Shown here one piece after another: positions 9,903 to 54,430 of a stretch of DNA of 64,000 nucleotides. Where the stretch lies: assembly GCA_046160485.1 (NCBI GenBank), contig JBJXGV010000063.1, forward strand, positions 19,326 to 83,325. Reading direction: 5' to 3'. This DNA comes from a bacterium. Lineage in GTDB: Bacteria > Orphanbacterota > Orphanbacteria > JBJXGV01. The position numbers and the translations under genes were made by a program. Under the pieces are notes generated by a model, which was not told where the DNA came from, did no database searches, and saw only the letters and a list, made by a program, of their open reading frames with translations. The first letter of the stretch is position 1. The number at the start of each line of letters is the position of its first letter.

Positions 9903-9904
9903 CG

Positions 9905-11026: not shown

Positions 11027-11029
11027 CCG

Positions 11030-12226: not shown

Positions 12227-12239
12227 CGGGAGCGCGCGC

Positions 12240-12908: not shown

Positions 12909-12910
12909 CA

Positions 12911-16016: not shown

Positions 16017-16050
16017 TGCGCGAACGGCGGGCCTGGAGGAAGGAATCGCA

Positions 16051-17556: not shown

Positions 17557-17571
17557 GGCGAGGCGGCGCGC

Positions 17572-24792: not shown

Positions 24793-25530
24793 TTACGCGA
24801 TCGAACGGCCGCCGTCGACGAACACGGTCTGCCCCGTCATGTACGGGGCCCGCGTTGCGAGAAAGACGACCGCGGAGGTGATTTCCTCGGGCGTTGCATG
24901 CCGTCCGAGCGGAACGCGGCCGAGAGGCGGCAGCGGCGCCTCATCGCGCGGACCGTTCGGATCGTCGTCCGCGAACGCGATCCCAGCGGGCGCGAGCGAG
25001 TTGACGCGCACCGCGGGCGCGTAGCGGCGCGCGAGCGCGCGCGTCGCATGCGCGAGCGCGGACTTCGACAGGCTGTAGGCGATGTGGCGGCGATACGGAA
25101 TGCGGCCGCCGACCGAGCCAATGTTGACGACGGCGCCGTGACGCGCCGCGAGTGCCGGCGCAAGCGCCCGCGTGAGCAGGATCGGCGCCAAGAGATTCAG
25201 CCGCGCAACTTGGTCCCAGGATTCCGGACTGAGTTCATCGATCGACTCGGTAGGGAAAAGGGCCGCGTTGTTGATGAGGATGTCGGCGCCGCCGAAGAGG
25301 GCGAGCGCGGCGGCGGCGGCGGCGCGGCAGTCACGGGCGGCGCGCAGGTCGGCGCGCATCGCGTGGGCGCGGCGGCCGAGCTCGCGCGCTTCCGTCACGG
25401 TTGCGTGCGCGCCCGCCTCCGAGGCGCGAAACGTCACGAAGAGGTCGCAGCCCTCGCGTGCGAGCGCGAGCGCGATCTGTTTGCCGAGGCGGCGCCCGCC
25501 GCCGGTCACGATCGCGACCTTTGCGCTCAC
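24793..25530 (-). CDS. SDR family oxidoreductase
   Basis: TGGGRRLG, NNAA, YSLSK catalytic motif. Confidence 0.8.
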   Translation of the reverse strand: MSAKVAIVTGGGRRLGKQIALALAREGCDLFVTFRASEAGAHATVTEARELGRRAHAMRADLRAARDCRAAAAAALALFGGADILINNAALFPTESIDELSPESWDQVARLNLLAPILLTRALAPALAARHGAVVNIGSVGGRIPYRRHIAYSLSKSALAHATRALARRYAPAVRVNSLAPAGIAFADDDPNGPRDEAPLPPLGRVPLGRHATPEEITSAVVFLATRAPYMTGQTVFVDGGRSIA

Positions 25531-32178: not shown

Positions 32179-33123
32179 ATGGTAGGTGCAGCGGCGGCCA
32201 TGCGGGTTCAGGAAGAACGCGAAGACGCGATCGAAACGAAGCGCGCCCCCAAGGTTGACACCGTCCCGAGCGTTGTTAAGAACGACAATTCCGACATCGG
32301 TTCGCTCGGCATTTATTTCAGAGACATCGGCCGGATCAACCTGCTCACGAAGGAAGAAGAGGTTCAGCTCGCACGGCGGGTTCGCCGGGGCGACTCCGAG
32401 GCGCTCACGCGTCTCGTCACGGCGAACCTGCGTTTCGTAGTCAGCGTCGCCAAGCGCTACGTCGGCCTCGGTCTCTCGCTCGAAGATCTCGTGGCCGAGG
32501 GCAACGTCGGCATCATTCGCGCGGCGCGGAAGTTCGACGACCGCCGAGGCGTACGGTTCCTCTCGTACGGCGTCTGGTGGATCAAGCAGGCGATGCTTCA
32601 GGCGCTCGCGGAGCAGGTGCCCGTCGTGCGAATCCCGCTTAATCGCAATGGCCTCATGCACAAGCTTCAGAAGACCGCTGACCAGCTCCGCAAGGCGCTC
32701 GAACGCGAGCCGACGTACTCCGAAATTGCGAAGGCCGTTTCGCTCTCGGAAGACGAGGTCGCGAATACCATGGAGCTGACGCGCAGCTACCTGTCGCTCG
32801 ACGGCGGCCCCGAGAGCGACGACGACGCGGTCGGACTCATGGAGTTCATCGAGGACTCTTCGGCGGTGTCCCCGGACGAACGCGTGGCGCGCGCGAATCT
32901 GCGCGAGGATCTCATGGCGGCGATCGACGAACTCCCCCCGCGCGAGGCCGAGGTGCTGCGGCTCTACTACGGCTTCGGGCTCCGCGAGGGAAAGACCCTC
33001 GAAGAGATCGGCGATCGGTTCCACCTTTCGCGCGAACGCATTCGTCAGATCAAGGAAGTGGCGATTCGGCGCCTTCGCGGCGGCGCGAAGGGACAAGCGC
33101 TCGAGTCGTATCTCGCCGGCTAA
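32179..33123 (+). CDS. RNA polymerase sigma-70 family factor, paralog of 21037..21897
   Basis: ATG with AGGAG RBS. TANLRFVVSVAKRY, GNVGIIRAARKFD, LPPREAEVLRLYYG. Alternative TTG start at 32140. Confidence 0.8.
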   Translation: MVGAAAAMRVQEEREDAIETKRAPKVDTVPSVVKNDNSDIGSLGIYFRDIGRINLLTKEEEVQLARRVRRGDSEALTRLVTANLRFVVSVAKRYVGLGLSLEDLVAEGNVGIIRAARKFDDRRGVRFLSYGVWWIKQAMLQALAEQVPVVRIPLNRNGLMHKLQKTADQLRKALEREPTYSEIAKAVSLSEDEVANTMELTRSYLSLDGGPESDDDAVGLMEFIEDSSAVSPDERVARANLREDLMAAIDELPPREAEVLRLYYGFGLREGKTLEEIGDRFHLSRERIRQIKEVAIRRLRGGAKGQALESYLAG

Positions 33124-34157
33124 CGAAGCGGGACGCCGCGCCCGCGACCGGTATGGCCAGCACCGGTAAGTTCGATCAGATACTCGACGCCCGCTTCGAT
33201 CGGAGCGGGCGTTCGTGCAAGAGGTGCGCACGCCCGCGCGCCGTCCGGAACGCGCGCGAACGTGACGGGCGGAAGAAAACCCTCCGGCGAAACGATCTCC
33301 CATCGTAGGTTGCCTTCCGCGAAGAACTGCGTGGAGATCGAGAGGCGCCGAACACGTACGGAATCAGGGCTCCACGCGATGCGAACGCTATCGCCGGATT
33401 CGAACCAAGTGGTCAACGAATCCGGCGTGTTCGTTTCGAGCGGGCTCGCCGGATCGAGGCGGACCGCCCGCGGCGTGCTCCACGCGAGGCGATGAACTCC
33501 CGCGGGAATGACGCGGCGAAGCGGCGCGTCGGGGCGAAACGAATCGACCGGCGCCGAAAGCGCAAGCACGCTGATACTCGCGTCGTTCGATGACAGCCGC
33601 GGCACGGGGATGATCGCCAAACTGCCCTGCGCGTCGCGCGAGCCGAACGCCGCGGTTTCTCCGCCCGCACCATCGACGACGACCCACGCTCCGCCCGCGC
33701 CCGTGAATCGACTCCACTCGATTTCGATCGATCCGCATCCGGTAAGGTCGGCGTTCTCCAACGGCCCAAGAATTCGCGGCCGCTCGGGCACCAGGAGCGT
33801 GTCGCGCTGCGCGAAACTCGGCAGCCGGACCGCGAAGGCCAGCGACTCGAACGGCTGCAACTCGAACGGCGGCGGTAGCTCGTAAAAGTCGCCCCGATCG
33901 GTGAGCGTCGCGCCGTTGGCCGTGACGATCGCATCGCCGATGGGCGCGCCGTCGTGGACCACACTCACGCGTATCGCGTCGCCGTCGGGCCAACCCGCGC
34001 GGCCCGCGTTCCCCGCGATCACCAGAATCCCGACGTCGAATCGATCCGAAGCGCCGGGGCCATCGACGTCAGAGTCCGCGCAACCCGCAAAGAATCCAGG
34101 CGCGGCGAGGATCGCGGCGATCGTGAAGGCGCGTGCGGCGTCTCTAGTGCAGCGCAT
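33120..34157 (-). CDS. hypothetical lipoprotein
   Basis: 345 aa. Signal peptide plus FFAGC lipobox. Confidence 0.5.
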   Translation of the reverse strand: MRCTRDAARAFTIAAILAAPGFFAGCADSDVDGPGASDRFDVGILVIAGNAGRAGWPDGDAIRVSVVHDGAPIGDAIVTANGATLTDRGDFYELPPPFELQPFESLAFAVRLPSFAQRDTLLVPERPRILGPLENADLTGCGSIEIEWSRFTGAGGAWVVVDGAGGETAAFGSRDAQGSLAIIPVPRLSSNDASISVLALSAPVDSFRPDAPLRRVIPAGVHRLAWSTPRAVRLDPASPLETNTPDSLTTWFESGDSVRIAWSPDSVRVRRLSISTQFFAEGNLRWEIVSPEGFLPPVTFARVPDGARACAPLARTPAPIEAGVEYLIELTGAGHTGRGRGVPLR

Positions 34158-35250
34158 CGGATGAATCAGGCCGAGGTGTGTCGACTCGCGCGGGCGGCAG
34201 GGTGGGCTGCTCCGGCTCGGCGAGTATCGTCACGAGCGCGAGGGCGATTGCTCGAGCGGCGACAGCGTGGCCGCGCGATCGCCAGTGTCCGTCGAACTGG
34301 TAGCGCACGGGCCCCGGATCCGCGGCGAGAGCGGGCACGATATCGAGAAACGGAATCCCGAGTTCCGAGCAGATGAGCGCGAGGTTCTTCGTCATCTCCG
34401 CGCCCGACGTTGTGCCCTGGACAACGAGAAGTCGCCCGCCGGTGTCCGCGACGCGATCCCGCAAGCGTGCGATCGCGAGCCTGGTGATACGCCACGCGGG
34501 CGCGCCGGAGTCGCCGCCGGCGCTCTTCGCGTCGAGATCACCCGTTCCGCGCGCGGGGTTTCGTGTGTTTCGCGCCGCGACCAACCGTTCCGCGCGAAAC
34601 CGCAAAAACCGGTAGACGTGAAGATTCTGTTTCGCCCAATCGACGGAAGCGCGCCAGATGCGCGCCGTGTCGCTTAGGCGATGCTCGTGGAACTCCAACG
34701 CGCCATCACGCAGTGTGTAGAGTCGCGCGTCGTTCTCGACGTTATCCGCCGGATCGTTCTGAACGAAGAGATAGATCACGACGTCGGGGTGAAACTTGGC
34801 TCCAAGCGATTCGAATCGAATCGTGGACGCGACCGTGCCGAACCCGCTCACTCCGAAATTGAGTACCTCGACAGGCTGCTCGCGCAGGTTTGCGGCCATG
34901 AGGCGCTCGAGCGTTTGCGCGAGCGTGCTGTCGAACGGAACTTCCTTCGCCTCGGCGAAAGAATCGCCGACGAGCGCAACTCGGAGCGCACCGGATCCAT
35001 TCTCGATCGACCGCTCCCGATCGCGCATCCCAAAGCTGTTGTACTCGACCGGCACGGCAAACTCTTCGCGTTGGTACGTGAATCGCGCGCCGGGAATCGG
35101 CTCGTACCATGTGGCGGGCGAGAATCGATAGCGGAACGCGGGCTGCGGATCAGCGATGCGCACCGCGACTTCCATGGCCGCGATCACGGCGAAGAGTGCC
35201 GCTAACGCAAGTCCGATGCTCGCGAGGCGGGCGCCGCCGGAGGGTTTCAC
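34144..35250 (-). CDS. SGNH/GDSL-type hydrolase, membrane-anchored
   Basis: N-terminal TM. VALVGDSF (GDS block) and a later DGHW block. Confidence 0.6.
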   Translation of the reverse strand: MKPSGGARLASIGLALAALFAVIAAMEVAVRIADPQPAFRYRFSPATWYEPIPGARFTYQREEFAVPVEYNSFGMRDRERSIENGSGALRVALVGDSFAEAKEVPFDSTLAQTLERLMAANLREQPVEVLNFGVSGFGTVASTIRFESLGAKFHPDVVIYLFVQNDPADNVENDARLYTLRDGALEFHEHRLSDTARIWRASVDWAKQNLHVYRFLRFRAERLVAARNTRNPARGTGDLDAKSAGGDSGAPAWRITRLAIARLRDRVADTGGRLLVVQGTTSGAEMTKNLALICSELGIPFLDIVPALAADPGPVRYQFDGHWRSRGHAVAARAIALALVTILAEPEQPTLPPARVDTPRPDSSDALH

Positions 35251-35290
35251 GTGTCGTCGCTGCGGCGCGTTGTGTCACTCGCGAGGCTCA

Positions 35291-35953
35291 TCATTTCTCG
35301 GCGAGGACGAACATGCGGTACTTGCTGCGTTCGATGTTGGCGGCGAAATCGAGGAGCGGATACGCAGGCGCCGCGGACTGCTCGAAGAGCCGCTTGAGCC
35401 GTCGCAGACCCGGCGTGTGCGCCATGCGCGCGAAGAACGTGTGAAAGCGAATCCCGGCGTTCCAGAATGACTCGAATCGAACGCCGCGCCCTTCGAAGAG
35501 AGGAATGATCTCCTCGGGGCGCGGCAGGCCGAACCGAATGTGTTCGTCGAGCCAGTCGGGCGCCGCCTCGCCGCGGCGCGCGAACTCCGCGTGCCAGCGC
35601 GAGTCGGACGCGTGCGCGCGTTCGCCGCACGGACATCCGAGGACGAGCTCGCGTCGCGTGATGCGGAGCATCTCCGCGATCGCGCGCGGCCGCATTTCTC
35701 GCGGCACATGCTCGAGAAAATCGATAGCGATCACGAGGTCGTACGACGCATCGGGCAGCCTGTTGTCGAAGAAATCCGTGCCGACCGGAATCAGGCGCGG
35801 GTGAAGCCCCTCGCCCGCGAGGAGAGGATCGATCGCGTGAATGCGCCGCCGCGTGTACGAGCAGATCCCCGTCGTGCCGCTGCCGATTTCGAGAACGGAC
35901 TCGTGGGATCGAAGCCGCCGGAGCGCCGGGATGTAGCGGATCAGTTCATCCAC
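35291..35953 (-). CDS. class I SAM-dependent methyltransferase
   Basis: VLEIGSGTTG motif I, DLVIAIDFLEH motif II-III. Start chosen at an in-frame GTG (VDELIRY...). The ORF-track extension to 36325 is Arg-rich and overlaps the PTPS gene, so is likely spurious. Start is uncertain. Confidence 0.6.
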   Translation of the reverse strand: MDELIRYIPALRRLRSHESVLEIGSGTTGICSYTRRRIHAIDPLLAGEGLHPRLIPVGTDFFDNRLPDASYDLVIAIDFLEHVPREMRPRAIAEMLRITRRELVLGCPCGERAHASDSRWHAEFARRGEAAPDWLDEHIRFGLPRPEEIIPLFEGRGVRFESFWNAGIRFHTFFARMAHTPGLRRLKRLFEQSAAPAYPLLDFAANIERSKYRMFVLAEK

Positions 35954-36127
35954 GAGCGGGGGCTTCTTTGGGCTGCGAATCGTGACGCACGGAGGCCATG
36001 ATACTCCATATCGGAATGGATTCGATGGAAGCGGAGACGAGATCGGCAGTACACTCGCGCGGTTGCAGGAGCGACGCGGCGTCTGCGCCGCGCGACGCGG
36101 AGCCCGCGAGATTTCAGCGAGGAGTCG

Positions 36128-36481
36128 ATGAGGGTCGCGAAAGAGTTTCGGTTCGAGGCGGCGCACGCGCTTCGGAACTACATGGGTTCCGACGAACCGG
36201 TGCATGGCCACTCGTGGCGCCTCCGCGTGACGCTCTCCGCGCCGGTCGCCGCGAACGGGCTCGCGTTCGATTTCGTCGAACTCGATCGCGTCGTGCGCGA
36301 ACGCGTTATCGCGCCGCTCGACCACACCGACTTAAGCGCGCGCTTCGAACAGCCCTCGACGGAACGCGTCGCGCAGTGGATCTGGAGAACACTCTCGGAT
36401 CTTCCGCTCTTCGAGGTCGCGCTGTGGGAAGGCCCCGACGCGTGGGTCGCCTACCGCGGCGAGGAGGACACGGCTAAGTGA
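36128..36481 (+). CDS. 6-pyruvoyltetrahydropterin synthase family protein (QueD/PTPS fold) with Glu-containing active-site variant (PTPS-III-like)
   Basis: EFRFEAAHAL ... DEPVHGHSW: the HGH zinc motif is present, but the position of the catalytic Cys of QueD (KCGRLHGH in E. coli) is Asp-Glu. Confidence 0.75.
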   Translation: MRVAKEFRFEAAHALRNYMGSDEPVHGHSWRLRVTLSAPVAANGLAFDFVELDRVVRERVIAPLDHTDLSARFEQPSTERVAQWIWRTLSDLPLFEVALWEGPDAWVAYRGEEDTAK

Positions 36482-36768
36482 ACGCACCGAATAATCGGCG
36501 AGACATTCCCGGTCCCGCGCCGGCGACGGCGCCCTCGGAAGTGTTTCAGGGCGAAGAAATCGATGAAACGTTCGACGGGCGCCTCAAGCAAGCGATCGTG
36601 CGGCATTTCCGGTACGCGTGGCGCGAGTTGATCGCGCTGCGCGGCACGCTTCGCGCCGAGAAGAGCGCCAGCGCGCGCGAGTTTCACCGCTCCGGCGACG
36701 AGCCCCCCCCGGCGGAAACGCTCGACGCGGGTGAATCGGGCCCCTCCGCGCCGGGCGCGGGGGCCTAG
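36478..36768 (+). CDS. hypothetical small protein (96 aa), weak call
   Basis: GTG overlapping the upstream stop, and fills the gap exactly to the next gene. No motif. Could be non-coding. Confidence 0.25.
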   Translation: MNAPNNRRDIPGPAPATAPSEVFQGEEIDETFDGRLKQAIVRHFRYAWRELIALRGTLRAEKSASAREFHRSGDEPPPAETLDAGESGPSAPGAGA

Positions 36769-36781
36769 GGCCGAGGCGCAC

Positions 36782-37582
36782 GTGCTGACGCTGATCCTCT
36801 CGCTCGAGCAACTGTCGTTCGGGTCGCTTCTGGCGATCGCGCCGCTTGCGTTGCGCGATCTTCCCGGCGGATTTCCATCGCTCATCGCGCACCTTGCCGC
36901 GGTCTTCTGGGGAATCGCCGGCGCCGTCGCGCTGCGCCTTCCTCCCGGCCAAGGCGGCGAGGCCGCTCCCGTACTCTTCGCGCTCGGCGGCGCCTCGCTC
37001 CTCTTCGCGCGCCTTGCGCTCTGGTCGCGGCACCGAATGGCCACGGCACTCTTGATCGCAATTCTCGCCGCCGGCGCGTGGGTCCTCGTCGCCGACGCGG
37101 CGCGCCTCGCCGCGCGTCTTTCCGAATCGCTGCCGCCGTCGCTCGTCGCCGCCAGCCTCTTCGCGTCGGCGCTCGTTCTCGGATCGGCGCTATCGACAAT
37201 GATTCTGGGCCACTGGTATTTGATTCCGCCGCCGCTGCCGTTCACGCACTTGATTCGCGGCTCCATCGTCTTTCTCGTCGCGTGCGGATTGCGCGCGCTT
37301 GTGACGGTCGTCTGCATCGTGTTCCTCGTCCGCGGCGTCGATCCAGCGATCAGCGAGTCGTTCGCGCGTCTCTTGCGGGTCGAAGGTGATCTCATCTTTT
37401 TCATGCTTCGCGTTTTTTGGGGAATCCTCGGCCCGGTGATTCTCTCGGTTCTCGTCCTGCGCACGGCGCGCCTCCACTCCAATCAGTCGGCGACGGGCTT
37501 GCTCTACGTCTCCTGCGTCTTCGTCCTCATCGGCGAACTTCTCGCGAATTTTCTCCTCGTCGAGAGTTCGCTCCCTTTGTAG
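36782..37582 (+). CDS. integral membrane protein (6-7 TM), uncharacterised
   Basis: Hydrophobic helices throughout. Start is uncertain (GTG 36782 or 36731). Confidence 0.5.
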   Translation: MLTLILSLEQLSFGSLLAIAPLALRDLPGGFPSLIAHLAAVFWGIAGAVALRLPPGQGGEAAPVLFALGGASLLFARLALWSRHRMATALLIAILAAGAWVLVADAARLAARLSESLPPSLVAASLFASALVLGSALSTMILGHWYLIPPPLPFTHLIRGSIVFLVACGLRALVTVVCIVFLVRGVDPAISESFARLLRVEGDLIFFMLRVFWGILGPVILSVLVLRTARLHSNQSATGLLYVSCVFVLIGELLANFLLVESSLPL

Positions 37583-37583
37583 C

Positions 37584-38027
37584 TTGTCCGGGTTGGAGGT
37601 TCGTTACGCCTGTGCGAAGTGCCGGGCGCCCGCGGCGGTACCGATCGGCCGCGCGGTCACCGAGCACCGTTGCGCGGCGTGCGGCGACGTCGCCCCTCTG
37701 CGATTCTCAGAGAGCCTACTCGAGAAGGGCGTCGCGGATCGCTGTGCGCTCTGCACGAGCGAGCACTTCTACATTCAGAAGGATTTTGATCAGCGTATCG
37801 GTTGTCTCGTCGTCGCCATCGGCGCGGTGTTCGTGCCGTGGACGTACGGCCTTTCACTCGGGGTCTGCGCGCTCATCGACTGGTTTCTCTACATGCGGCT
37901 CCCAAACGTGGCGAAATGCTACATCTGCAAGGCGACGTATGTTGGGGGCACCATGAACGCGGAACACACGGGGTTCGACCTTCACATGCTGGAGAAGTAC
38001 GAAGCGGAGGCGCGGAGAAAAGGATGA
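37584..38027 (+). CDS. double zinc-ribbon membrane protein
   Basis: TTG start. CAKC...CAAC and CALC...CYIC pairs flanking a TM helix. ATGA overlap with folE. Confidence 0.45.
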
Positions 38028-38623
38028 AACGAGGCAGCGTAACGAAGCGAAAAGGGGCGAAGTTCCATGGAGGGATCGCGCCGCGCGTGGGCGAGATGTT
38101 GAGTCTCCTCGGGGAGGACCCAAATCGCGAGGGGCTTCTTAAGACCCCCGACCGCGTGGAGAAGTCGCTCCACTTTCTCACGAGCGGTTATCGCCAAAAG
38201 ATCGGCGACATCATCAATGGAGCGGTCTTCGAGGAGGTGTGCGACGAGATGGTCGTCGTGCGGGACATCGATCTCTTCAGTCTCTGCGAACATCACCTCC
38301 TGCCGTTCTACGGGAAAGCGCACGTGGCGTATCTGCCCGACGGGAAGATCATCGGGCTGTCGAAGATTCCGCGCATCGTCGAAATGTTCGCGCGGCGCCT
38401 TCAAGTGCAGGAGCGCCTCACGACGCAGATCGCCGAGTGCATCGAAGCGCATTTGCACCCGCGCGGCGTCGGCGTCGTGATCGAGGCGTACCACCTCTGC
38501 ATGGCGATGCGCGGCGTCCAAAAGCTCAACGCGTTTGCGACGACGAGCGCGATGCTCGGCGCATTCCGGCAAGATCGCGGAACGCGCGCGGAGTTCCTCA
38601 ACTTCTTAAGCGCGCGCCGCTAG
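38024..38623 (+). CDS. folE: GTP cyclohydrolase I
   Basis: 199 aa. CEHHLLPF and HLCMAMRGV signatures. Confidence 0.9.
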
Positions 38624-38681
38624 CAGCGCGGTCGAACGCGCGCGCGGCGTTGCGCCGAGAGCGGATGGAGAGCGGCATTCC

Positions 38682-39524
38682 ATGAAAGTCGGCTCGTACG
38701 AAATCTTCGCGGTCGAGGCCGAGACGTTTCGCCTCGACGGCGGCGCGATGTTCGGCGTCGTGCCGCGCACGCTCTGGGAGAAGACGAATCCTCCGGACGA
38801 CAAGAACCGAATCCGGATGACCACGCGCGTGCTCGTGTTGCGCGGCGACGGCCGCACGGCGATCGTCGATGCGGGGATCGGAGCGAAGGAGACCGAGAAG
38901 TTCCGCGGGATCTACGCCATGGGGCGCGCGGGAAGCCTCGTGGAATCACTGGCGCAGCGCGGCGTCGCCGCCGCCGACGTTACCGACGTGATTCTCTCGC
39001 ATCTCCACTTCGATCACGCCGGCGGCGGGACGCGGCGCGACGGCGATCGCGTCGTTCCCGCGTTTCCGCGCGCGAACTATCACGTGCAGCGCGTCAACCT
39101 CGCGCAGGCGCGGCGGCCCAACGATCGCGATCGCGCGAGTTTCTTTCCCGACAACTTCGAGCCGCTCGCGCTCGCGGGCGTTCTGCGCGAACACGATCCC
39201 GACGCCGAGATTCTCCCCGGTGTTTTCGCGCGCGTGACGAATGGCCATTCGCCCGGACACCAGATGATCGAGGTGATCGACGGACACGATAGTGTTGCGT
39301 TCGTCGGCGAAACCGCACCGATGACGAGCCATCTTCCGACTCCGTACGTGATGGGCTACGACCTCGAGCCCGTCGTCACAATGGAGGAGAAGAAGACGTG
39401 GCTTCCGCGTTGGGCGGAGCGCGGTACCGTGCTCGTGTTCGATCACGATCCCGACACCGGCGCGGCGCGCATCGAACCGGGTGCACGCGGGTACTTCCAA
39501 ATCTCCGAGCGCATCACGCTGTGA
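38682..39524 (+). CDS. MBL-fold metallo-hydrolase
   Basis: HLHFDHAGG (HxHxDH) motif. Confidence 0.8.
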   Translation: MKVGSYEIFAVEAETFRLDGGAMFGVVPRTLWEKTNPPDDKNRIRMTTRVLVLRGDGRTAIVDAGIGAKETEKFRGIYAMGRAGSLVESLAQRGVAAADVTDVILSHLHFDHAGGGTRRDGDRVVPAFPRANYHVQRVNLAQARRPNDRDRASFFPDNFEPLALAGVLREHDPDAEILPGVFARVTNGHSPGHQMIEVIDGHDSVAFVGETAPMTSHLPTPYVMGYDLEPVVTMEEKKTWLPRWAERGTVLVFDHDPDTGAARIEPGARGYFQISERITL

Positions 39525-40399
39525 CGGACGAACGCGCGGGCGCCGCGGCGCGCGTGCCGGTCCTCATCGGCGAGAGGCTCAACCCGTCAGGCAATCCGCG
39601 CCTCGCGATGCGTCTGGCAGCGGGGGAGTGGGACGCGCTCGACGATGAAGCGCGCGCGCAGGCGGCGGGCGGCGCCGAATTTCTCGACGTCAACGGCGTC
39701 CTCGGCGGCGCGCGCGAGCGGGACATCCTCTTCGAGATGATCGAGCGCGCGGAGCGCGTCGCGGCGCTACCGCTCGTTCTCGATTCGCGCGACGCGGCGC
39801 TTCTCGCGGAGGCGAGCGCACGCACACGCGCGCCTGCGATCCTCAGCTCGATTCCCGCGACGCGCGGCGCGCTCCGCGACGTACTGCCACGTGTCGCCGG
39901 CTCGGGTCGCGCGATCGTCGGGCTCGCGATGGGAGACGATGGCGTTCGCGGCTCCGCCGAGGAACGATTTGCATGCGCCGAGCGCTTCGTGGCCGCCGGG
40001 CTCGCGCTCGGTGTTCCGCGCGAGAGTTTGATCGTCGATTGCCTCGCGATGCCGCTCCCTCCTCGCACCGCGGCGCAAGGCGCGAGCGCGATTGCGCCGC
40101 TCGGCGCCACGGTCGTCGCGAACGCCGCCGCGCTCGGCGCGATGCGTCTCGTGGCCGCGCGGCTCGGCGCACCGCTCCTGCTCGGCATCTCGAACGCCGC
40201 GTACGGCGCTCCCAACGCCGCCGAGCGCAGCCGCCGCGCGTGCGAGTTTCTCACCGCCGCGCTCGCCGCCGGCCTCGACTACGCGATCGCGAATCCTCTC
40301 GACGAGCGGATTCGTAGTATCCTACACGCCGCGAAGCGGGACCGCGGGCACGTCGCCCGTCCGATCTCGCCCGTCACACGAAAGGAGAACGCGGAATGA
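39521..40399 (+). CDS. pterin-binding domain protein (dihydropteroate synthase / MtrH-like)
   Basis: GTGA overlap with the MBL gene. VLIGERLNPSG N-terminal pterin-binding TIM-barrel signature. ATGA overlap with lemA. Confidence 0.65.
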   Translation: MTDERAGAAARVPVLIGERLNPSGNPRLAMRLAAGEWDALDDEARAQAAGGAEFLDVNGVLGGARERDILFEMIERAERVAALPLVLDSRDAALLAEASARTRAPAILSSIPATRGALRDVLPRVAGSGRAIVGLAMGDDGVRGSAEERFACAERFVAAGLALGVPRESLIVDCLAMPLPPRTAAQGASAIAPLGATVVANAAALGAMRLVAARLGAPLLLGISNAAYGAPNAAERSRRACEFLTAALAAGLDYAIANPLDERIRSILHAAKRDRGHVARPISPVTRKENAE

Positions 40400-40953
40400 T
40401 CTTTCTCGTGCTCGCGGGAATCGTGGTGCTTGCCGCAGTCTGGGCGATCGGAATCTTCAACGGGCTCGTCGGCCTGCGCAACCAAGTTCAGAACGCGTGG
40501 AAGCAGATCGACGTTCAGCTCAAGCGCCGTCACGATCTCATCCCCAATCTCGTGAACACCGTGAAGGGGATGATGAAGTTCGAACAGGACACGCTGACGA
40601 AGGTGATGGAGGCGCGCGCGAAGGCGGTCGGCGCGACGAGCGTCGGCGCGAAGGGCGCTGCCGAGGGAGAACTCACGCAAGCGCTCGGCCGGCTCTTCGC
40701 CGTCGTCGAGAACTATCCCGATCTGAAGTCCAACGTGAACGTCCTGAAGTTGCAAGAGGAACTCACGACGACCGAGAATCAAATCGGATTCTCGCGCCAG
40801 CACTACAACGATTTGGTGATGCGCTACAACACGCGCCAAGAGGTGTTCCCGACGAATCTCGTCGCGGGGATGCTCGGCTTCCAACGTTCGGAGTTTCTCG
40901 AGATCGCGGAGACGGAGCGCGCCACGCCGGCGGTCGATCTCTCTCTGTCGTGA
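40396..40953 (+). CDS. lemA: LemA family protein
   Basis: N-terminal TM then the conserved LemA core (WKQIDVQLKRRHDLIPNLV ... NYPDLKSN). Confidence 0.85.
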   Translation: MIFLVLAGIVVLAAVWAIGIFNGLVGLRNQVQNAWKQIDVQLKRRHDLIPNLVNTVKGMMKFEQDTLTKVMEARAKAVGATSVGAKGAAEGELTQALGRLFAVVENYPDLKSNVNVLKLQEELTTTENQIGFSRQHYNDLVMRYNTRQEVFPTNLVAGMLGFQRSEFLEIAETERATPAVDLSLS

Positions 40954-41966
40954 GCGCGGCGGCGCCGTCCGCGCGGCGTGATCTCTGGCAGGAGCAGGCG
41001 CGCAATCGACGCAACACGTGGTTCCTCATCGCGGGATTCGTCGCGCTCCTCGGCATACTCGGCTTCGGCGCGGACTTTTTTATCTGGACGCGTGCGGGCG
41101 ACGGCGAGTTCCCGAGCGGCTTCGTGCCGATCGCCACGCCGATCGCGCTCGCCGTCGGATTACTGCAGTCGGTCGGCGGCTACATGGCCGGCGCCAGCGC
41201 CGTGCTCTCGTCGACGCGCGCGCGGCCGGCCGACCCTGCGAATCCGCGCGAGGAGATCCTCCTCAACGTCGTGCAAGAGATGCGCGCCGCCTCCGGCCTG
41301 CCGATGCCGCGCGTCTACGTGGTGCCGGATCACGACCCGAACGCGTTCGCCGTCGGCCGCAGCCCGGAACACGCGGCGATCGCGGTGACGGAGGGGCTTC
41401 TCGATCAACTCGATCGCGAAGAGTTGCAGGGCGTGATCGCGCACGAGATGGCGCACATCCGCAATCTCGACATCCGAACGATGACGCTCGTCGCCGCGCT
41501 TCTCGGCGCGCTCGTGCTGATCTCCGATCTTTCGCTGCGCATGTTGCGCTTCGGCGGCGGCGGCTCGAACTCGCGCCGAAGCAGCCGCGATGGCGGCGGC
41601 GGCGGTGGCGGCCCGCTCGTTCTCGTTTTCCTCGTGCTGTGGATTCTGCTTGCGGTCGTCACGCCGATTCTCGGGCAGATGCTCGCGTTCGCCGTCTCGC
41701 GCTCGCGCGAGTTCGACGCCGACGCGAGTGCGGCGGAGTTCACGCGCAACCCGGTCGGGCTCGCGAAGGCGCTCCGCAAGATCGACGCGGCGGCCGAACC
41801 GACGCGCAGCGTGAAGCGCGGCTCCGCGCACCTCTGCATCGCCGATCCGCAGGGGCGCGCGGTGAACAAATCGGAAGGCGCGCTCGCCTCGCTCTTCGCG
41901 ACGCATCCTCCCATCGCGAAACGGATCGCGATACTCGAGAACATGGCGGGCGTGGGGAACGCGTGA
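40950..41966 (+). CDS. htpX: M48 family zinc metalloprotease HtpX-like
   Basis: GTGA overlap with lemA. HEMAHIRNLD, SRSREFDAD, TM helices. Contains a poly-Gly run (GGGGGGG) from a GGC repeat. Confidence 0.8.
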   Translation: MSAAAPSARRDLWQEQARNRRNTWFLIAGFVALLGILGFGADFFIWTRAGDGEFPSGFVPIATPIALAVGLLQSVGGYMAGASAVLSSTRARPADPANPREEILLNVVQEMRAASGLPMPRVYVVPDHDPNAFAVGRSPEHAAIAVTEGLLDQLDREELQGVIAHEMAHIRNLDIRTMTLVAALLGALVLISDLSLRMLRFGGGGSNSRRSSRDGGGGGGGPLVLVFLVLWILLAVVTPILGQMLAFAVSRSREFDADASAAEFTRNPVGLAKALRKIDAAAEPTRSVKRGSAHLCIADPQGRAVNKSEGALASLFATHPPIAKRIAILENMAGVGNA

Positions 41967-47515: not shown

Positions 47516-47561
47516 GCCGGCATTCGACGCCCCCCGCTGACCCCCGAACTTGGAGGTACGG

Positions 47562-47984
47562 ATGTTTAAGAAGAAAGGGAAGTTCGTCATCGGGATCACG
47601 GCGGTGCTCGTCGCCCTCGGCTACCTCGCCGTCTCCGGGTTCGAAGCCGGCAAGGCGTATTACATCACCGCGACCGAACTGAAGGAAATGGGAACGCGCG
47701 CGCACGGTCTGCGGCTCCGCGTCGCGGGCACCGTGGCCGACGGAAGCATCACGCGCGACAGTTTCGTGACGCGATTCACTCTCGAGCAAGCCGGGACCAC
47801 GGTCCCGATAATCTACTCCGGCAAGGAGCCGCTTCCCGACACGTTCATGGACGGGGCGCAGGCGGTTTGCGACGGCGAACTCAACGACGACGGATCATTC
47901 GAGGCGAAAAAGATTCAAGCGAAGTGCGCCTCGAAGTACGAGGCCGGCTACGATCCGGCCACACTCGAACCGAAGAGTTCGTAG
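47562..47984 (+). CDS. ccmE: cytochrome c-type biogenesis heme chaperone CcmE
   Basis: N-terminal TM then OB-fold. LRLRVAGTV pattern. Confidence 0.85.
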   Translation: MFKKKGKFVIGITAVLVALGYLAVSGFEAGKAYYITATELKEMGTRAHGLRLRVAGTVADGSITRDSFVTRFTLEQAGTTVPIIYSGKEPLPDTFMDGAQAVCDGELNDDGSFEAKKIQAKCASKYEAGYDPATLEPKSS

Positions 47985-48017
47985 CGTTCATAGCTCGACA
48001 ACGGGAGGGAGTACGCC

Positions 48018-48479
48018 ATGGCGGTTCCCGTCGGCGCCCTTGTTCGCGGGCGCGAAATCTACTTCGTACGCCCCGAAATGACGGTGCGCGACGCGGTGCG
48101 TTACATGGCCGAGAAGAGCGTCGGCGCCGCTGTCGTTCTCGACGGCGAGCGTGTCATCGGCATCTTCACCGAGCGCGACCTCATGACGCGCGTCGTCCAC
48201 CTCGGCAAAGACGTCGATTCCACGAAGGTCGTCGACGCGATGTCGCGCGATTTGATTCTGTCCGAGGCGGACGAATCGGAAGAGACGTGCCACCGTCGAA
48301 TGATTCGCCACCGCATTCGCCACCTGCCGGTCGTCGAGAAGGGGCATCTGATCGGCCTCGTCTCCCTGCGCGACCTCTTGCTCGAAACTCTGCACCGCAA
48401 GGAAGAAGAACTCGATCAGATGACGCAGTACATCCACTACATTCCGCCGCACGCCGCGTCCGAGAAACGCGAAGGATGA
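48018..48479 (+). CDS. CBS-domain pair protein
   Basis: Two CBS motifs. GGGAGGGAG RBS. Confidence 0.8.
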   Translation: MAVPVGALVRGREIYFVRPEMTVRDAVRYMAEKSVGAAVVLDGERVIGIFTERDLMTRVVHLGKDVDSTKVVDAMSRDLILSEADESEETCHRRMIRHRIRHLPVVEKGHLIGLVSLRDLLLETLHRKEEELDQMTQYIHYIPPHAASEKREG

Positions 48480-48486
48480 CCTGCGA

Positions 48487-50514
48487 GTGAGTGATTTCGG
48501 GAACGCAGCGATCATTCTCGTTTTCGCGGTTTCGATCTATTCGATCATCGCGTCGGTCGCGGGCGCGTGGACACGCCGCGAGGGTCTTGTTCGCAGCGCC
48601 GAAAACGGCGTCCTCTGCATCTTCGGCCTCGTCGTGCTTGCGACCGGCGCGCTCATCGCTCTCTTCCTGACCGACGACTTCGGAATCGAGTACGTCGCCG
48701 GCCACTCCAACCGCGCGCTTCCGGTCTTCTACAAAATCGCCGCCTTGTGGTCCGGGCAGGAGGGCTCGCTTCTCTTCTGGAGCCTGATCCTCTGTTTCTA
48801 CGCGGCGATCGTCGTCGTGCAGAACCGCCGCGAGAACCGCGATCTGATGCCGTACGTCCTGCCGTGCCTTCTCGGCACGATCCTCTTCTTCAACATCCTG
48901 AACGTCTTCGTCGCGAACCCGTTCGCGGCGATCGGGCTCGCCGACGCGGGAGGACACGTTCAGCTCATGACGCCGCCCGACGGCAACGGCCTCAACCCGC
49001 TCTTGCAGCACCCGGCGATGGTGATTCATCCGCCGATTCTCTACCTCGGCTACGTCGGGTTCGCGATCCCCGCGGCGTTCGCGATGGCGGCGCTCTGGAA
49101 GAAGCAACGCGGTAGCCGGTGGATTCAGACGACGCGCCGCTGGACCCTCGTCGCGTGGTTGTTTCAAGGCACCGGGCTTCTCCTCGGCGGACGCTGGGCG
49201 TACGCGGAACTCGGCTGGGGCGGTTATTGGGCGTGGGATCCGGTCGAGAACGCGTCGCTTATGCCGTGGATCACGGCGACAGCGTTCCTTCACTCCGTCA
49301 TCGTCCAAGAGCGCAAGGGAATGCTCAAGGTTTGGAACATGGTGCTCGTCATGCTGACCTACGGGCTCTGCATCTTCGGCACCTTCCTGACGCGCTCCGG
49401 GATCGTTTCTTCGGTGCACGCGTTCGCGCAGTCGACGATCGGGCCGTGGTTCGTCGGCTTCCTCGCGCTCTTCGCGCTGACGACGGGCGGGCTCATCGTC
49501 ATGCGCCTCGAGTACCTCAAGAGCGAGCGCGAACTCGACTCGGTGCTTTCGCGCGAATCGTCGTTCCTCTTCAACAACCTGATCCTGCTCGCCGCGGCGT
49601 TCGCCGTGTTGTGGGGCACGATCTTTCCCGTCATCTCCGAAGCGGTGCGCGGCGTGCAGATCACCGTCGGCGCGCCCTACTTCAACAAGATCAACATTCC
49701 GATCGGCTTGTTCCTGCTCTTCCTCACGGGCGTCGGGCCGCTCTTCGCGTGGCGCAAGACCTCCGTCGCCAGCCTCAAGAAGAACTTCACGATTCCGATC
49801 GCGACCGGACTGGTCACGCTCGCGATCGCGCTCTTGTTCGGCGCGCGCCATTTCTACGGACTCGTATCGCTCTCGATCTGCGGCTTCGTTCTCGCGACGA
49901 TCGTCTCCGAGTTCGCGCGCGGCGTGTCGACGCGAATGGAGACGACGCGCGAAAACCCCCTCGTCGCGCTCGTGAACCTCGTCCGCCGCCACAAGCGGCG
50001 TTACGGCGGCTACATCGTTCACTTGGCGATCGTGATGATCTTCGTCGGCTTCACGGGGCAAGCGTTCGACTTCGAAACGCGCGGCGAGATGCTCCCGGGC
50101 GACCGGATGTCCGTGCGCGGCTACGAACTCGTGCTCGACGATCTGAAGGAAGGCGAAAACGACAACTACACGTTCGGCCTCGCGACGATGACGCTCCTTA
50201 AGGACGGCAAGAAACTCGAAACGCTGCTGCCGGAGAAGCGGTTCTACAAGACGTCGCAGCAGCCCACTTCGGAAGTGTCGATTCACTCGACGTCCCTCGA
50301 GGATCTCTACGTGGTGTACCTCGGAACATCGGATAACGGTCGCGCGCTGATCCAGGTTTATCTCAATCCGCTCGTTTCGTGGGTGTGGACCGGGGCTGTC
50401 GTGATGTTCCTCGGCACGATTCTCACGATCCTCCCCGAGCGGCGAACGACGCGCGCGGATGCGGCCGGCGTACCGGCCTCGCTTGGACTCGAGCGCTACG
50501 GAGTGGAGACATAA
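48487..50514 (+). CDS. ccmF: cytochrome c-type biogenesis protein CcmF (heme lyase)
   Basis: 675 aa polytopic. WAYAELGWGGYWAWDPVEN WWD-type motif. Confidence 0.9.
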   Translation: MSDFGNAAIILVFAVSIYSIIASVAGAWTRREGLVRSAENGVLCIFGLVVLATGALIALFLTDDFGIEYVAGHSNRALPVFYKIAALWSGQEGSLLFWSLILCFYAAIVVVQNRRENRDLMPYVLPCLLGTILFFNILNVFVANPFAAIGLADAGGHVQLMTPPDGNGLNPLLQHPAMVIHPPILYLGYVGFAIPAAFAMAALWKKQRGSRWIQTTRRWTLVAWLFQGTGLLLGGRWAYAELGWGGYWAWDPVENASLMPWITATAFLHSVIVQERKGMLKVWNMVLVMLTYGLCIFGTFLTRSGIVSSVHAFAQSTIGPWFVGFLALFALTTGGLIVMRLEYLKSERELDSVLSRESSFLFNNLILLAAAFAVLWGTIFPVISEAVRGVQITVGAPYFNKINIPIGLFLLFLTGVGPLFAWRKTSVASLKKNFTIPIATGLVTLAIALLFGARHFYGLVSLSICGFVLATIVSEFARGVSTRMETTRENPLVALVNLVRRHKRRYGGYIVHLAIVMIFVGFTGQAFDFETRGEMLPGDRMSVRGYELVLDDLKEGENDNYTFGLATMTLLKDGKKLETLLPEKRFYKTSQQPTSEVSIHSTSLEDLYVVYLGTSDNGRALIQVYLNPLVSWVWTGAVVMFLGTILTILPERRTTRADAAGVPASLGLERYGVET

Positions 50515-50522
50515 CCCACGCA

Positions 50523-51062
50523 ATGTTGGCCGGCCTTTTTTCATCCCGACGCCGCGCGTTGGTTGCGGCGATGTGCGTCGCGGCGATCGCGCTTTTCGTG
50601 GCGGCGCGCGCGGAGGCGCAATCCGCCCAGACGAGCCTGACGGATCGCGGGCAGGTCTATCTTTTCCGCGAAGTTTCCGAGGCTCTCGTCTGCCAGTGCG
50701 GCTGCAACATGATTCTCTATGTCTGCAATCACGTGAATTGCCCCTCTGCGTATCCGTTCCGCGACTCGATCGAAGTGATGATCCAGGCCGGAAAAACGAA
50801 AGAGCAAATCGTGGCGAAGTTCGTCGCGGACCACGGCGAGGTTGTTCTCTCGGCGCCGACGACGGACGGCTTCAACCTTGCCGCATGGGTGACACCGTTC
50901 GTCATGCTGGTTCTCGGCGGCGCGTACCTCGGGTCGTTCCTGCGAGCGCGCAAGCGCCGCGCCGCGCTCCAAGCCGCTGCCGTTGCCGCATCGGCGCCCG
51001 GCGGCCGCAGGGATTCCTACACCGAGCGCGTCGACGAAGAACTCGACAGGTTCCGAGGCTGA
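50523..51062 (+). CDS. ccmH: cytochrome c-type biogenesis protein CcmH/CycL-like with variant Cys motif
   Basis: Signal peptide. MIQAGKTKEQIVAKFVADHGEVV resembles E. coli CcmH LMQEGKSKKEIVDYMVARYGNFV. The Cys motif is CQCGC...C..C instead of LRCxxC. C-terminal TM. Confidence 0.7.
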   Translation: MLAGLFSSRRRALVAAMCVAAIALFVAARAEAQSAQTSLTDRGQVYLFREVSEALVCQCGCNMILYVCNHVNCPSAYPFRDSIEVMIQAGKTKEQIVAKFVADHGEVVLSAPTTDGFNLAAWVTPFVMLVLGGAYLGSFLRARKRRAALQAAAVAASAPGGRRDSYTERVDEELDRFRG

Positions 51063-51064
51063 CG

Positions 51065-51661
51065 ATGACCACCTCTACGATTCTGCTGGTTCTCATGTCG
51101 CTCGGCGTCGTGGCGGCGCTACTGCACCCGCTGCTCGCGTCGCGCTCGCGCAACCGTCGCGTGTCGCGCGGCCCCTCCGAGATCGACGCGCTCCTCCGCC
51201 GAAAGGCCAATCTCTACGCGAACATGAAGGACCTCGAATTCGAGTTTCAGATGGGCAAGCTCTCGCCCGCGGACTACGAACGGCTGCGTGACGACGATCG
51301 CGCCGAGGCCGCGCGCTTGCTCCACGAGATCGAAGCGCTCGAAGATCGCGACGATGTCGACGCGATCATCGAACGCGAGATCGCGGCGCGGCGCGCAAGC
51401 CGCGAACGCGGCGGCGCGCAAGGCGAGGCGCCCGAGCCGAGCACGCGCCGCGCGAGCGACGCGCCCAGCGCGATCGAGAGTGCGGCGGCGGCGATGGCCT
51501 CGACTGCGACCTCGACCTCGACCTCGACCTCGACTGCGACGGCGGCCGCCGCCGCGCCGCGCCCGGTCGCGTTCTGTTCGGCATGCGGAGCGCGCGTCCG
51601 TCCGGCCGATCGATTCTGCTCGGCATGCGGCAGCGCGATCCGCTCGGGTGACGACGCGTGA
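51065..51661 (+). CDS. membrane-anchored protein with coiled-coil, Ser/Thr/Ala low-complexity linker and C-terminal zinc ribbon
   Basis: N-terminal TM. FCSACGARVRPADRFCSACG. Confidence 0.5.
   Translation: MTTSTILLVLMSLGVVAALLHPLLASRSRNRRVSRGPSEIDALLRRKANLYANMKDLEFEFQMGKLSPADYERLRDDDRAEAARLLHEIEALEDRDDVDAIIEREIAARRASRERGGAQGEAPEPSTRRASDAPSAIESAAAAMASTATSTSTSTSTATAAAAAPRPVAFCSACGARVRPADRFCSACGSAIRSGDDA
51505..51530 (+). repeat. hexanucleotide tandem repeat (GACCTC)x4 inside coding sequence
   Basis: Seen directly: cgacctcgacctcgacctcgacctcgac, encoding STSTSTST. Confidence 0.6.
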
Positions 51662-52962
51662 TCGCGATCGCTCGCCGTATCGTTCTCGCGCTGATCATCG
51701 CAGCGATCGCGGCGGCCCTCGCGCCGGCCGGCGCGCGCGCGATCGAAGCCCGCATCGACGGCACGCTCGAGAACGCGACGAGCGGCGGCCCCGCCCACGC
51801 CGACTACGTCCGGCTCCTGCGGCTCAAGACAGGAATGGAGCAGATCGCCGTCATCGAGGACGTCACCGGCTCCTTCCAATTCTCGGGTATCACCGGCGAG
51901 ATCAACGATCCCTACTTGGTGCAGGTCTCGAGCGGTAGCGTCAACTACAACGAAAGCGTCACACTCGACGCGACGGGCATCGCCTCGCTCAACATCGCCG
52001 TGTACGACACGACGAGTTCTCTCGCGGATGTGCGCGTCGTGAAGTACCAGATTGGGCTTGCCGTCGAATCGCAGCTGCTTCGTGTCTTCAAGGTCGCGGA
52101 GATCATGGTCGAAGGAGATCCGCCTCGCGCCGTCGTGATCGAGCCGGGAGCGTTTCGTTTTCCGGTGCAGTCCGCGCTCGTGAAGATGGGAACGGCGACG
52201 GCGCAGTACGCAACGATGCCGCTCTCCGTCGATCCGGTGCGGGTCGGCGACGGGAGCGAGTACGCGATCAGCTATCCGCTGCGTCCCGGCAAGACGGAGC
52301 TTCAGATTCAATACGACCTCGAATACGACGAGGCCGGCACCGTATTCTCGGAGGCGATCGCATACGCGGTCGATGAGATCAACGCGCTCGTCGTTCCCGA
52401 GAGCATCGCGGTCGTCTCTGACGTCCTTTCCGATCGCGGCCTCGATCCGCAGAACGGGATACATCTCTTCTCGGGGCTCGATATCCCCGCGGGCACGGCG
52501 ATCACGCTGCGACTTTCGGGGAAGGGAGCGTCGGCGTCGCCCCACCCGGAGATGGACGAGGGCGCGGGCGAGGGCGCGGGCGCGGAGGGCGGCATGGGCG
52601 GCGAGCGTAGCCGCGGCCGCTCTGGCGGCGGTGGAGATCGAGTCGTTCACGTTCCGAATCGCATGAATTCGATTCGCACTCCCGTGATTGCGGGAGTACT
52701 CGGCACGCTGCTTCTCGGCGCGGCGTACGCGCTGACGCGACCCGCGACGGCCGGCGGCGAGGCGGGAAGCGGTCAGCGCACGAGCGATCCCGTGTTTCTC
52801 GCGCGCCGCGAGCAGATCCTCGACCGAATCGTCGCGCTCGACGCGAAGCACCGCGCCGGCGAGATCTCCGAGTACGCGTATTGGCAGAAGCGTGAAGCGC
52901 TCAAGGACCTCCTCGTCGAGATCATCGAAGAGGCGGCGCGGAGCAAGCGGGTGAAGATGTGA
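51658..52962 (+). CDS. hypothetical exported protein with C-terminal TM anchor
   Basis: GTGA overlap. Signal peptide. C-terminal TM followed by a charged tail. Gly-rich region. Confidence 0.5.
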   Translation: MIAIARRIVLALIIAAIAAALAPAGARAIEARIDGTLENATSGGPAHADYVRLLRLKTGMEQIAVIEDVTGSFQFSGITGEINDPYLVQVSSGSVNYNESVTLDATGIASLNIAVYDTTSSLADVRVVKYQIGLAVESQLLRVFKVAEIMVEGDPPRAVVIEPGAFRFPVQSALVKMGTATAQYATMPLSVDPVRVGDGSEYAISYPLRPGKTELQIQYDLEYDEAGTVFSEAIAYAVDEINALVVPESIAVVSDVLSDRGLDPQNGIHLFSGLDIPAGTAITLRLSGKGASASPHPEMDEGAGEGAGAEGGMGGERSRGRSGGGGDRVVHVPNRMNSIRTPVIAGVLGTLLLGAAYALTRPATAGGEAGSGQRTSDPVFLARREQILDRIVALDAKHRAGEISEYAYWQKREALKDLLVEIIEEAARSKRVKM

Positions 52963-53027
52963 CGAACGCGGCCGCGGCGGCTCTCGACTCCGCGGCGAGC
53001 GCGCGCCGCACGGCGAGCGCGTACGTC

Positions 53028-54427: not shown

Positions 54428-54430
54428 CTC

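Follow-up and report, generated by a model that had tools for sequence, protein, structure and literature searches.

We analysed a stretch of 64,000 nucleotides of bacterial DNA (the window; GenBank assembly GCA_046160485.1, contig JBJXGV010000063.1), focusing on a 4.3-kb run of genes at positions 36128-40399 that comprises a homologue of the 6-pyruvoyltetrahydropterin synthase (PTPS) family and FolE, a GTP cyclohydrolase I. The initial annotation of this DNA had described the run as one folate cluster, in which a PTPS-III-like enzyme bypasses the aldolase FolB and four conserved-looking genes are candidate new components of the pterin pathway. FolB bypass remains the best-supported function for the PTPS gene, and the kind of enzyme is already known. 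The run itself appears, on balance, to be a lineage-specific same-strand string of independent units rather than one pathway cluster. All genes of the earlier listing were found on the plus strand at the coordinates and with the overlaps claimed, and the overlap-coupled run goes on past 40399 into a LemA and an HtpX gene:

36128-36481, plus strand: PTPS-family (COG0720) gene, 117 aa; PF01242 at 91 bits
36478-36768, plus strand: 96-aa open reading frame (orf96), weakly conserved; its start overlaps the PTPS stop (GTGA)
36782-37582, plus strand: polytopic membrane protein, 266 aa; NrfD/PsrC/CydA-like fold, member of a large uncharacterised family
37584-38027, plus strand: transmembrane (TM) protein with four CxxC motifs (ZnR), 147 aa; constant partner of the membrane gene
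38024-38623, plus strand: FolE, GTP cyclohydrolase I type IA, 199 aa; TIGR00063 at 254 bits; its start overlaps the ZnR stop (ATGA)
38682-39524, plus strand: metallo-hydrolase of the metallo-beta-lactamase (MBL) fold, 280 aa; PF00753 at 69.5 bits; distantly YtnP-like
39521-40399, plus strand: PF00809 protein, a MetH/MeTr-type TIM barrel, 292 aa; its start overlaps the MBL stop (GTGA)
40396-40953, plus strand: LemA-family protein; PF04011 at 199 bits; its start overlaps the stop of the PF00809 gene (ATGA)
40950-41966, plus strand: HtpX-type M48 zinc metalloprotease; NF003425 at 276 bits; its start overlaps the LemA stop (GTGA)

The gene lengths agree with the public annotation of this metagenome-assembled genome (MAG) for the five genes that were checked, the membrane protein having 266 aa in both; ZnR is three codons shorter in the public record. 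The public names are PTPS family protein, hypothetical protein (twice), FolE, MBL hydrolase and 'dihydropteroate synthase'. The identity of FolE is supported by TIGR00063 (254 bits, cutoff 181.6), by PF01227 (244 bits) and by the CEHH and HLC zinc-site motifs in the translation. The folE part of the proposed cluster thus stands; the dihydropteroate synthase (DHPS) part does not, as described below for the PF00809 protein.

With regard to the PTPS homologue, its signature reads Y-M-G-S-D22-E23-P-V-H26-G-H28 and comprises neither the QueD (PTPS-I) nor the PTPS-II cysteine. The subfamilies are distinguished by CxxxHGH in PTPS-I/QueD, CxxxxxHGH in PTPS-II, ExxHGH in PTPS-III and CExxHGH in dual-function PTPS-I/III hybrids, the last of which reportedly act in queuosine as well as folate synthesis (PMC5041015). 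The window protein exhibits the ExxHGH motif, as E23-P-V-H26-G-H28, together with the PF01242 fold, the Zn(His)3 site and the Asp-His pair. The position of the QueD cysteine is occupied by Asp22, and by Ala or Pro in relatives from the same lineage. The zinc ligands and catalytic residues H13, H26, H28, D65-H66 and E101 are all present and do not vary when the protein is aligned with E. coli QueD, PH0634 and relatives from bacteria. Both the sequence and the alignment agree with the initial observation that the SDEPVHGH segment lacks the QueD cysteine and keeps the HGH zinc site.

Several further observations separate this protein from QueD. Its score against the QueD model TIGR03367 is 73 bits, which is under the NCBI cutoff of 89.25. 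The best solved relative is PH0634 (PDB code 2dj6, E 1.5e-15), which has the same ExxHGH motif, with its glutamate aligned to Glu23. This glutamate is kept in 15/15 close homologues and in locus L004 (as AE). The preceding residue is D in 14 of the 15, P in the remaining one (P0143) and A in L004. As the glutamate is invariant while D, A and P are all found before it, the glutamate is the selected residue and the aspartate is incidental.

Outside the lineage, the next PTPS relatives (52-61% identity) mostly exhibit CExxHGH, and a more distant acidobacterial group carries PEPVHGH. The simplest reading of these sequences is that the window PTPS derives from a hybrid-type CExxHGH ancestor by loss of the cysteine, in which case the QueD half of the dual function has probably been lost as well. 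The hybrids are its nearest relatives outside the lineage, and the hybrid of locus L086 keeps an order PTPS-X-FolE, in which X is a gene considered below; the loss of the cysteine is what distinguishes the window protein from them. Compared with the PTPS-III enzymes of Plasmodium, Chloroflexi, Acidobacteria and others (PMC5041015), the window PTPS is alike in the PF01242 fold, the three zinc-binding histidines, the D-H pair, the pterin-binding Glu101, the cysteine-free ExxHGH motif and the linkage to folE. In contrast to these enzymes, it sits in a clade whose other members exhibit CExxHGH, with Asp (or Ala/Pro) replacing their cysteine, and neither folK nor folP clusters with it.

A folate role through FolB bypass is more likely for this PTPS than a queuosine role, because the ExxHGH motif is present, both cysteine signatures are absent, the QueD score is below the cutoff, PH0634 has the same motif, and no queC, queE or queF was found. 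The Pfam scans that underlie this last statement covered most of the plausible open reading frames (ORFs) of the window, and the three genes were likewise not found beside the orthologues in L002, L004 and L086-L088. The preference for a PTPS-III-like enzyme over QueD, and for folate over queuosine, was already expressed in the initial annotation and is borne out here, as is the alignment of the glutamate that it had asked for. According to the mechanism that we favour, FolE would turn GTP into 7,8-dihydroneopterin triphosphate. The PTPS would then turn the triphosphate directly into 6-hydroxymethyl-7,8-dihydropterin, relying at the Zn(His)3 site on its invariant Glu23 where QueD relies on a cysteine, a chemistry suggested by the motif. 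This product would feed FolK and FolP encoded elsewhere in the genome, FolB being bypassed; no FolB was found among the window ORFs scanned. PTPS-III enzymes reportedly act directly on dihydroneopterin triphosphate, so that a separate pyrophosphatase, one of the missing components for which the initial annotation had made room, is not needed.

There are also observations that weigh against this assignment. The validated Plasmodium-type PTPS-III is a weak match only (2a0s, E 0.0077), and the PTPS-III family is reportedly polyphyletic. Neither FolK nor FolP was found among the window ORFs scanned, and folK and folP were also not found beside the PTPS relatives in L086, L087, L090 and L092. Of the folate genes, only folE adjoins the PTPS gene, its PF00809 neighbour being of the MetH type, and folE is common to all GTP-derived pterin and deazapurine pathways. 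As the subfamily is set by motif and context, and as the match to the validated enzyme is weak, membership of the window PTPS in PTPS-III is probable rather than proven.

The alternative that survives best, which we nevertheless consider unlikely, is that the COG0720 protein performs no FolB bypass and provides another GTP-derived product. This could be 6-carboxy-tetrahydropterin for 7-deazaguanines, with Asp22/Glu23 acting as the base, or a non-folate pterin cofactor reduced by the short-chain dehydrogenase/reductase (SDR) encoded 11 kb upstream. It is consistent with the CExxHGH motif of the closest outgroup enzymes, which is the motif reported for queuosine and folate together (PMC5041015). 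The SDR (24793-25530, minus strand) has a pteridine reductase as its top NCBIfam match (194 bits, cutoff 288), and neither folK nor folP is adjacent to the PTPS gene. The PTPS-I family is also described as promiscuous. In contrast, the cysteine is lost throughout the lineage and its replacement varies between D, A and P, so that no conserved catalytic substitute exists, and the protein scores below the QueD cutoff and lacks the PTPS-II cysteine. Moreover, queC, queE and queF were not found among the window ORFs scanned, no preQ1, tetrahydrofolate or other riboswitch was found by Rfam in the window, and the SDR match is not only under the cutoff but barely above those of generic SDR models. If the PTPS-III assignment is true, it adds an uncultured lineage, related to Candidatus Eisenbacteria, to those with the known FolB bypass. 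The bypass would have arisen by loss of the cysteine from a dual-function CExxHGH ancestor, which is a useful annotation rule and not a new principle.

Other PTPS contexts were observed during this comparison. On a low-GC metagenome contig (L119, 2307-3981), a PTPS variant reads PDAKVHGH and has neither the Cys nor the Glu that mark the known signatures; downstream of it come, in this order, a membrane protein of 232 aa with several TM passes (YhhQ-like by look), FolE, LipB and LipA. In a Planctomycetes MAG (L090/L091, 8001-8952), a CYTH (triphosphate tunnel metalloenzyme) gene overlaps a CExxHGH-type PTPS gene, and a his biosynthesis operon lies directly downstream. A PP-loop gene upstream in L086 was considered as a possible QueC and ruled out, as it is a LarE (289 bits).

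We next consider whether the run is one conserved cluster. The order PTPS-membrane-ZnR-FolE-MBL-PF00809 recurs in L002, L004, L005, L088 and L089, five loci that belong to one lineage (sigma-70 about 70% identical). The flanking genes also keep their order, over about 25 kb from ApbC through fructose-bisphosphate aldolase to the DHH and Ccm genes (L088), and therefore the synteny is general and not specific to the genes of the run. In L004, a citrate synthase gene lies between the MBL and PF00809 genes. Outside the lineage, the sole association that survives is that of FolE with PTPS. The neighbourhood conservation that the initial annotation had proposed to examine, i.e. that of the MBL, ZnR and membrane genes beside PTPS and folE, is thus confined to a single lineage.

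The coupling by overlaps, which had been taken as a mark of the cluster, does not delimit it either. Overlaps of 4 nt between start and stop codons are found in five pairs, namely PTPS/orf96, ZnR/FolE, MBL/PF00809, PF00809/LemA and LemA/HtpX. As they reach the unrelated LemA and HtpX genes, they do not mark a pathway, and the practical correction is that such tight overlaps of 4 nt are no guide to pathway boundaries in this genome. LemA-M48 pairs are also present in L002, L004, L005 and L088. A scan for promoters and terminators gave no useful information, with 0 promoters and terminator matches at chance level. Upstream of the run, between the sigma-70 and PTPS genes, the window carries three minus-strand genes (33120-36325) that are absent from this place in L002, L004 and L088: a 345-aa protein of unknown function, an SGNH/AlgX-like protein and a methyltransferase. 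In its longest form, the methyltransferase ORF would run over the 5' end of the PTPS gene, and its true start is probably internal.

With regard to the genes that separate PTPS from FolE, orf96 has a coding-like GC distribution over codon positions and no family match in Pfam or NCBIfam. It had been counted among the conserved-looking genes, a description that does not fit the 27-32% identity to the same-position ORFs in L002 and L004, with which it has a common core (L/I)(R/K)(R/Q)(E/A)(I/V)VR..R..W. As it is missing in L088/L089, orf96 is dispensable, a fast-evolving leftover. In the sister lineages L086 (Candidatus Eisenbacteria) and L087, the order is PTPS-X-FolE, and no membrane, ZnR, MBL or PF00809 gene was found near it. 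Gene X (L086 8326-8940, L087 8326-8931) encodes 201-204 aa, overlaps the PTPS stop and gives a weak DJ-1/PfpI match. Its N-terminus opens with an LRREV-type motif resembling the core of orf96, and orf96 may, judging from this resemblance, be a remnant of the longer gene X. X is a candidate pterin-linked unknown whose support from context is better than that of the genes flagged earlier. The possibility that X corresponds to the ZnR protein was ruled out, since the two have no similarity.

The membrane protein exhibits 8-9 helices, and not the 6-7 TM segments initially proposed. No Pfam match at E<=1 and no NCBIfam match was found. Its fold matches the quinol-interacting subunits NrfD, PsrC and CydA, with the eight-TM core of two four-helix bundles that is expected of an NrfD/PsrC-like protein. 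It belongs to a family with at least 873 matches and without a family model, whose invariant motifs include G-H-W-Y-L and Q-x-A-T-G. As only one histidine is invariant, a CydA-like haem binding is unlikely. The ZnR protein, which also has no Pfam or NCBIfam match, comprises four CxxC motifs (two Cys4 sites), and across 70 homologues the conservation of its eight cysteines is 87-100%. The hydrophobic stretch flanked by these motifs is interpreted as a hairpin of two TM helices.

When one genome per GTDB species was scanned, 576 relatives of the membrane protein were returned, and the neighbourhood counts given here refer to the best 80 of these 576 loci (L006-L085). About 66 of the 80 are from Acidobacteriota, the rest being from Verrucomicrobia, Latescibacterota, Planctomycetia, Omnitrophota, Gemmatimonas and Polyangiaceae. 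A first ORF clustering of these neighbourhoods was noisy (all-frame ORFs in GC-rich DNA) and served only to pick representatives for Pfam. In 67/80 loci, ZnR directly follows the membrane gene, and the gap has a median of 13 nt across 69 pairs, two same-lineage loci included. A PTPS gene is near the membrane gene in one of the 80 loci, 9 kb off and on the opposite strand, and MBL, PF00809 or LemA genes are near it in 0/80. The membrane/ZnR pair is therefore a module of two genes that stands on its own and is common in Acidobacteriota and neighbouring phyla, and the 67/80 loci in which no PTPS, MBL or pterin-binding gene stands beside the pair do not agree with its proposed role as pterin-pathway components.

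The fold suggests that the pair is probably linked to quinones or membrane redox processes and unrelated to pterins, and probably not a pterin transporter. In comparison with NrfD/PsrC-like subunits (ActC/ActF, PsrC; PMC8076601) and cytochrome bd subunits, the membrane protein differs in having no Pfam or NCBIfam sequence match. An NrfC/PsrB-type Fe-S subunit is present in all described NrfD-type complexes (PMC8076601). In contrast, the partner here is a small 2xCys4 protein with a TM hairpin, and no NrfC/PsrB-type poly-[4Fe-4S] subunit is adjacent, since no Fer4 gene adjoins in the window. Tentatively, the pair could thus represent an undescribed widespread module, present in the genomes of at least 576 GTDB species, in which a quinone-interacting, NrfD/PsrC-like scaffold is combined with a small 2xCys4 protein anchored in the membrane (Zn or rubredoxin-like Fe) that replaces the Fe-S subunit. 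That this module was recruited into a folE-PTPS operon in the lineage of the window, linking the quinone pool to pterin redox chemistry, seems highly improbable. The NrfD-like protein and its 2xCys4 partner, widespread, undescribed and without a family model, are the only part of the locus with real discovery potential.

Among the frequent neighbours of the pair in Acidobacteriota are a UPF0227 hydrolase, glutamate dehydrogenase, Nuo/Mrp antiporter-type subunits, an MqnC-like radical SAM enzyme and NadA. An equivalence between the alpha/beta hydrolase upstream in the window and the UPF0227-type hydrolase found ahead of the membrane gene in Acidobacteriota was dropped, as the similarity is at the level of the fold only.

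The MBL hydrolase has a conserved HxHxDH site (H107-H109-D111-H112). It aligns over its full length with the S. aureus protein 3esh (117 bits, about 30% identity) and resembles the YtnP-family lactonases in fold, motif and full-length alignment. It differs from them in scoring well under the family cutoff (NF047919, 182.8 bits against 425), and is therefore not an equivalog of YtnP. Its neighbourhoods were examined in 80 metagenome loci (L094-L173; 36-51% identity), about 41-43 of which have flanking sequence of 2 kb or more on a given side. In a single locus, L119, FolE is near the MBL gene and is accompanied by the different PTPS variant and the YhhQ-like gene mentioned above. The genes found most often beside these relatives encode RNase T, an MTAP-like phosphorylase, MeaB, QueG, a Rieske protein and arginine deiminase, none of them in more than 10 loci, and the FolE-MBL-PF00809 arrangement is repeated in 0/80. 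'Pterin' matches near these relatives were ruled out as a link to a stand-alone PF00809 protein, as they come from a full-length MetH about 2 kb upstream in 3 loci. The MBL relatives show no recurrent pterin link, and the suggestion that the hydrolase is a pterin-pathway component finds no support in them. Some of them lie near cobalamin-linked genes (MetH in 3 loci, QueG in about 7-8 and MeaB in 8, with L098, L129, L139 and L097 among the loci), which could be due to chance. The window MBL gene itself abuts that of a MetH-type folate-binding barrel.

This barrel is the PF00809 protein, which was initially described as DHPS/MtrH-like and is named 'dihydropteroate synthase' in the public record. 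A profile of eight homologues searched against the PDB matches the MetH folate domain at 120 bits and MeTr/MtgA at 104-106 bits, compared with 20 bits for DHPS. AlphaFold2 predicts a TIM barrel (pLDDT 86.5) with a TM-score of up to 0.85, and the top 38 Foldseek matches are all MtgA, MeTr or MetH, DHPS appearing first at rank 39. The N-terminal motif of the family is GER(L/I)N, and G17-E18-R19-x-N21, D88, D173 and N225, which are invariant among the homologues, line up with the residues through which MeTr contacts the pterin. At the position of MeTr Asn96, the window protein has a serine, and P0006 and P0008 have an asparagine. In an exhaustive search of 1.84 billion representatives, the family itself comprises two clusters at 50% identity, and the next matches beyond it are the folate domains of MetH-type proteins of about 800 aa.

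The PF00809 protein is thus alike to MeTr/AcsE (2e7f), MtgA (4o1e) and the MetH folate domain in its TIM barrel, GERxN motif, Asp88, Asp173 and Asn225. It differs from them in the serine at the position of MeTr Asn96, in a variable insertion, in its fast evolution and restriction to one lineage, and in standing alone. A full-length MetH finds its only match in the window at 39557-40345. No homocysteine-binding, B12 or activation domain was found in the window, no B12-binding family among the window ORFs scanned, and no corrinoid protein or domain of the kind with which MeTr and MetH work was found in cis or nearby. The protein is a lineage-restricted, fast-evolving, stand-alone methyl-tetrahydrofolate-binding barrel of the MetH/MeTr type and not a DHPS. 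On the basis of its sequence and model, it would use folate rather than make it, and the public label should be corrected to a MetH-type folate-binding barrel.

These results bear on the view, taken in the initial annotation, that the whole run is one pterin/folate operon in which the membrane, ZnR, orf96 and MBL proteins are new components and the PF00809 protein is a DHPS-like enzyme. The strand-contiguous and partly overlap-coupled genes, the order kept in five related loci, the presence of FolE beside the membrane/ZnR pair in 3 loci (Latescibacterota, Gemmatimonas) and the MBL relative located about 1.1 kb from a PTPS/FolE group in L119 would all fit such an operon. In contrast, the pair stands in 67/80 distant loci without PTPS, MBL or pterin-binding genes and never on the same strand as FolE, and sister lineages exhibit PTPS-X-FolE without these genes. 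Furthermore, orf96 is missing in L088, the MBL neighbours are heterogeneous, citrate synthase interrupts the run in L004, the PF00809 protein scores 100 bits higher with MetH than with DHPS, overlap coupling reaches LemA and HtpX, and a separate pyrophosphatase is needless with a PTPS-III enzyme. A single operon is, in our view, very unlikely.

We therefore prefer the reading of the run as a string of independent units. The first would be FolE with the PTPS-III-type enzyme, and the second the NrfD/PsrC-like membrane protein with its 2xCys4 partner, placed between PTPS and FolE in this lineage. The third would be the YtnP-like MBL hydrolase and the fourth the stand-alone MetH-type barrel, which would consume or handle folate; LemA and HtpX would continue the overlap-coupled string. 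Three points speak against this reading. The order is held in all five same-lineage loci that span it, with 51-89% protein identity and tight spacing, so that co-transcription and some functional coupling within the lineage are conceivable. FolE is near the membrane/ZnR pair in 3 of the 80 loci, convergent (on the opposite strand) in all 3, which looks like inherited synteny among related phyla and not like an operon. Finally, the function of the pair is deduced from the fold alone.

The last alternative is that the PF00809 protein is a divergent DHPS analogue using 6-hydroxymethyl-7,8-dihydropterin (or its pyrophosphate) from FolE and the PTPS-III enzyme. This would explain both the public label and the position adjacent to pterin genes in this lineage; the pterin-binding TIM-barrel superfamily is common to it and DHPS, DHPS chains appear in Foldseek at E of about 1e-8, and the family is lineage-restricted and fast-evolving. 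It is very improbable, given the GERxN motif and the D/D/N pterin residues of MeTr/MetH, the 120 bits for MetH against 20 for DHPS, the top 38 structural matches to methyl-tetrahydrofolate methyltransferases, and the folate domains of ~800-aa MetH-type proteins as nearest relatives.

Elsewhere in the window, the Pfam scans identified a complex I operon, ApbC, two sigma-70 factors, a NUDIX-Fer2 protein, the SDR and ThiC, among others. In the complex I-type operon (8886-19071), the 49-kDa subunit is directly followed by NuoH, NuoI, NuoJ and three antiporter-like subunits, and the ORFs scanned did not include a NuoE, NuoF or NuoG. The cytochrome c maturation (Ccm) genes at 47550-55192 were named from Pfam-annotated syntenic loci. 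The SDR gene adjoins a gene (23950-24735, plus strand) encoding a MutT-like NUDIX domain fused to a 2Fe-2S ferredoxin domain, and the same pair is present in L088.

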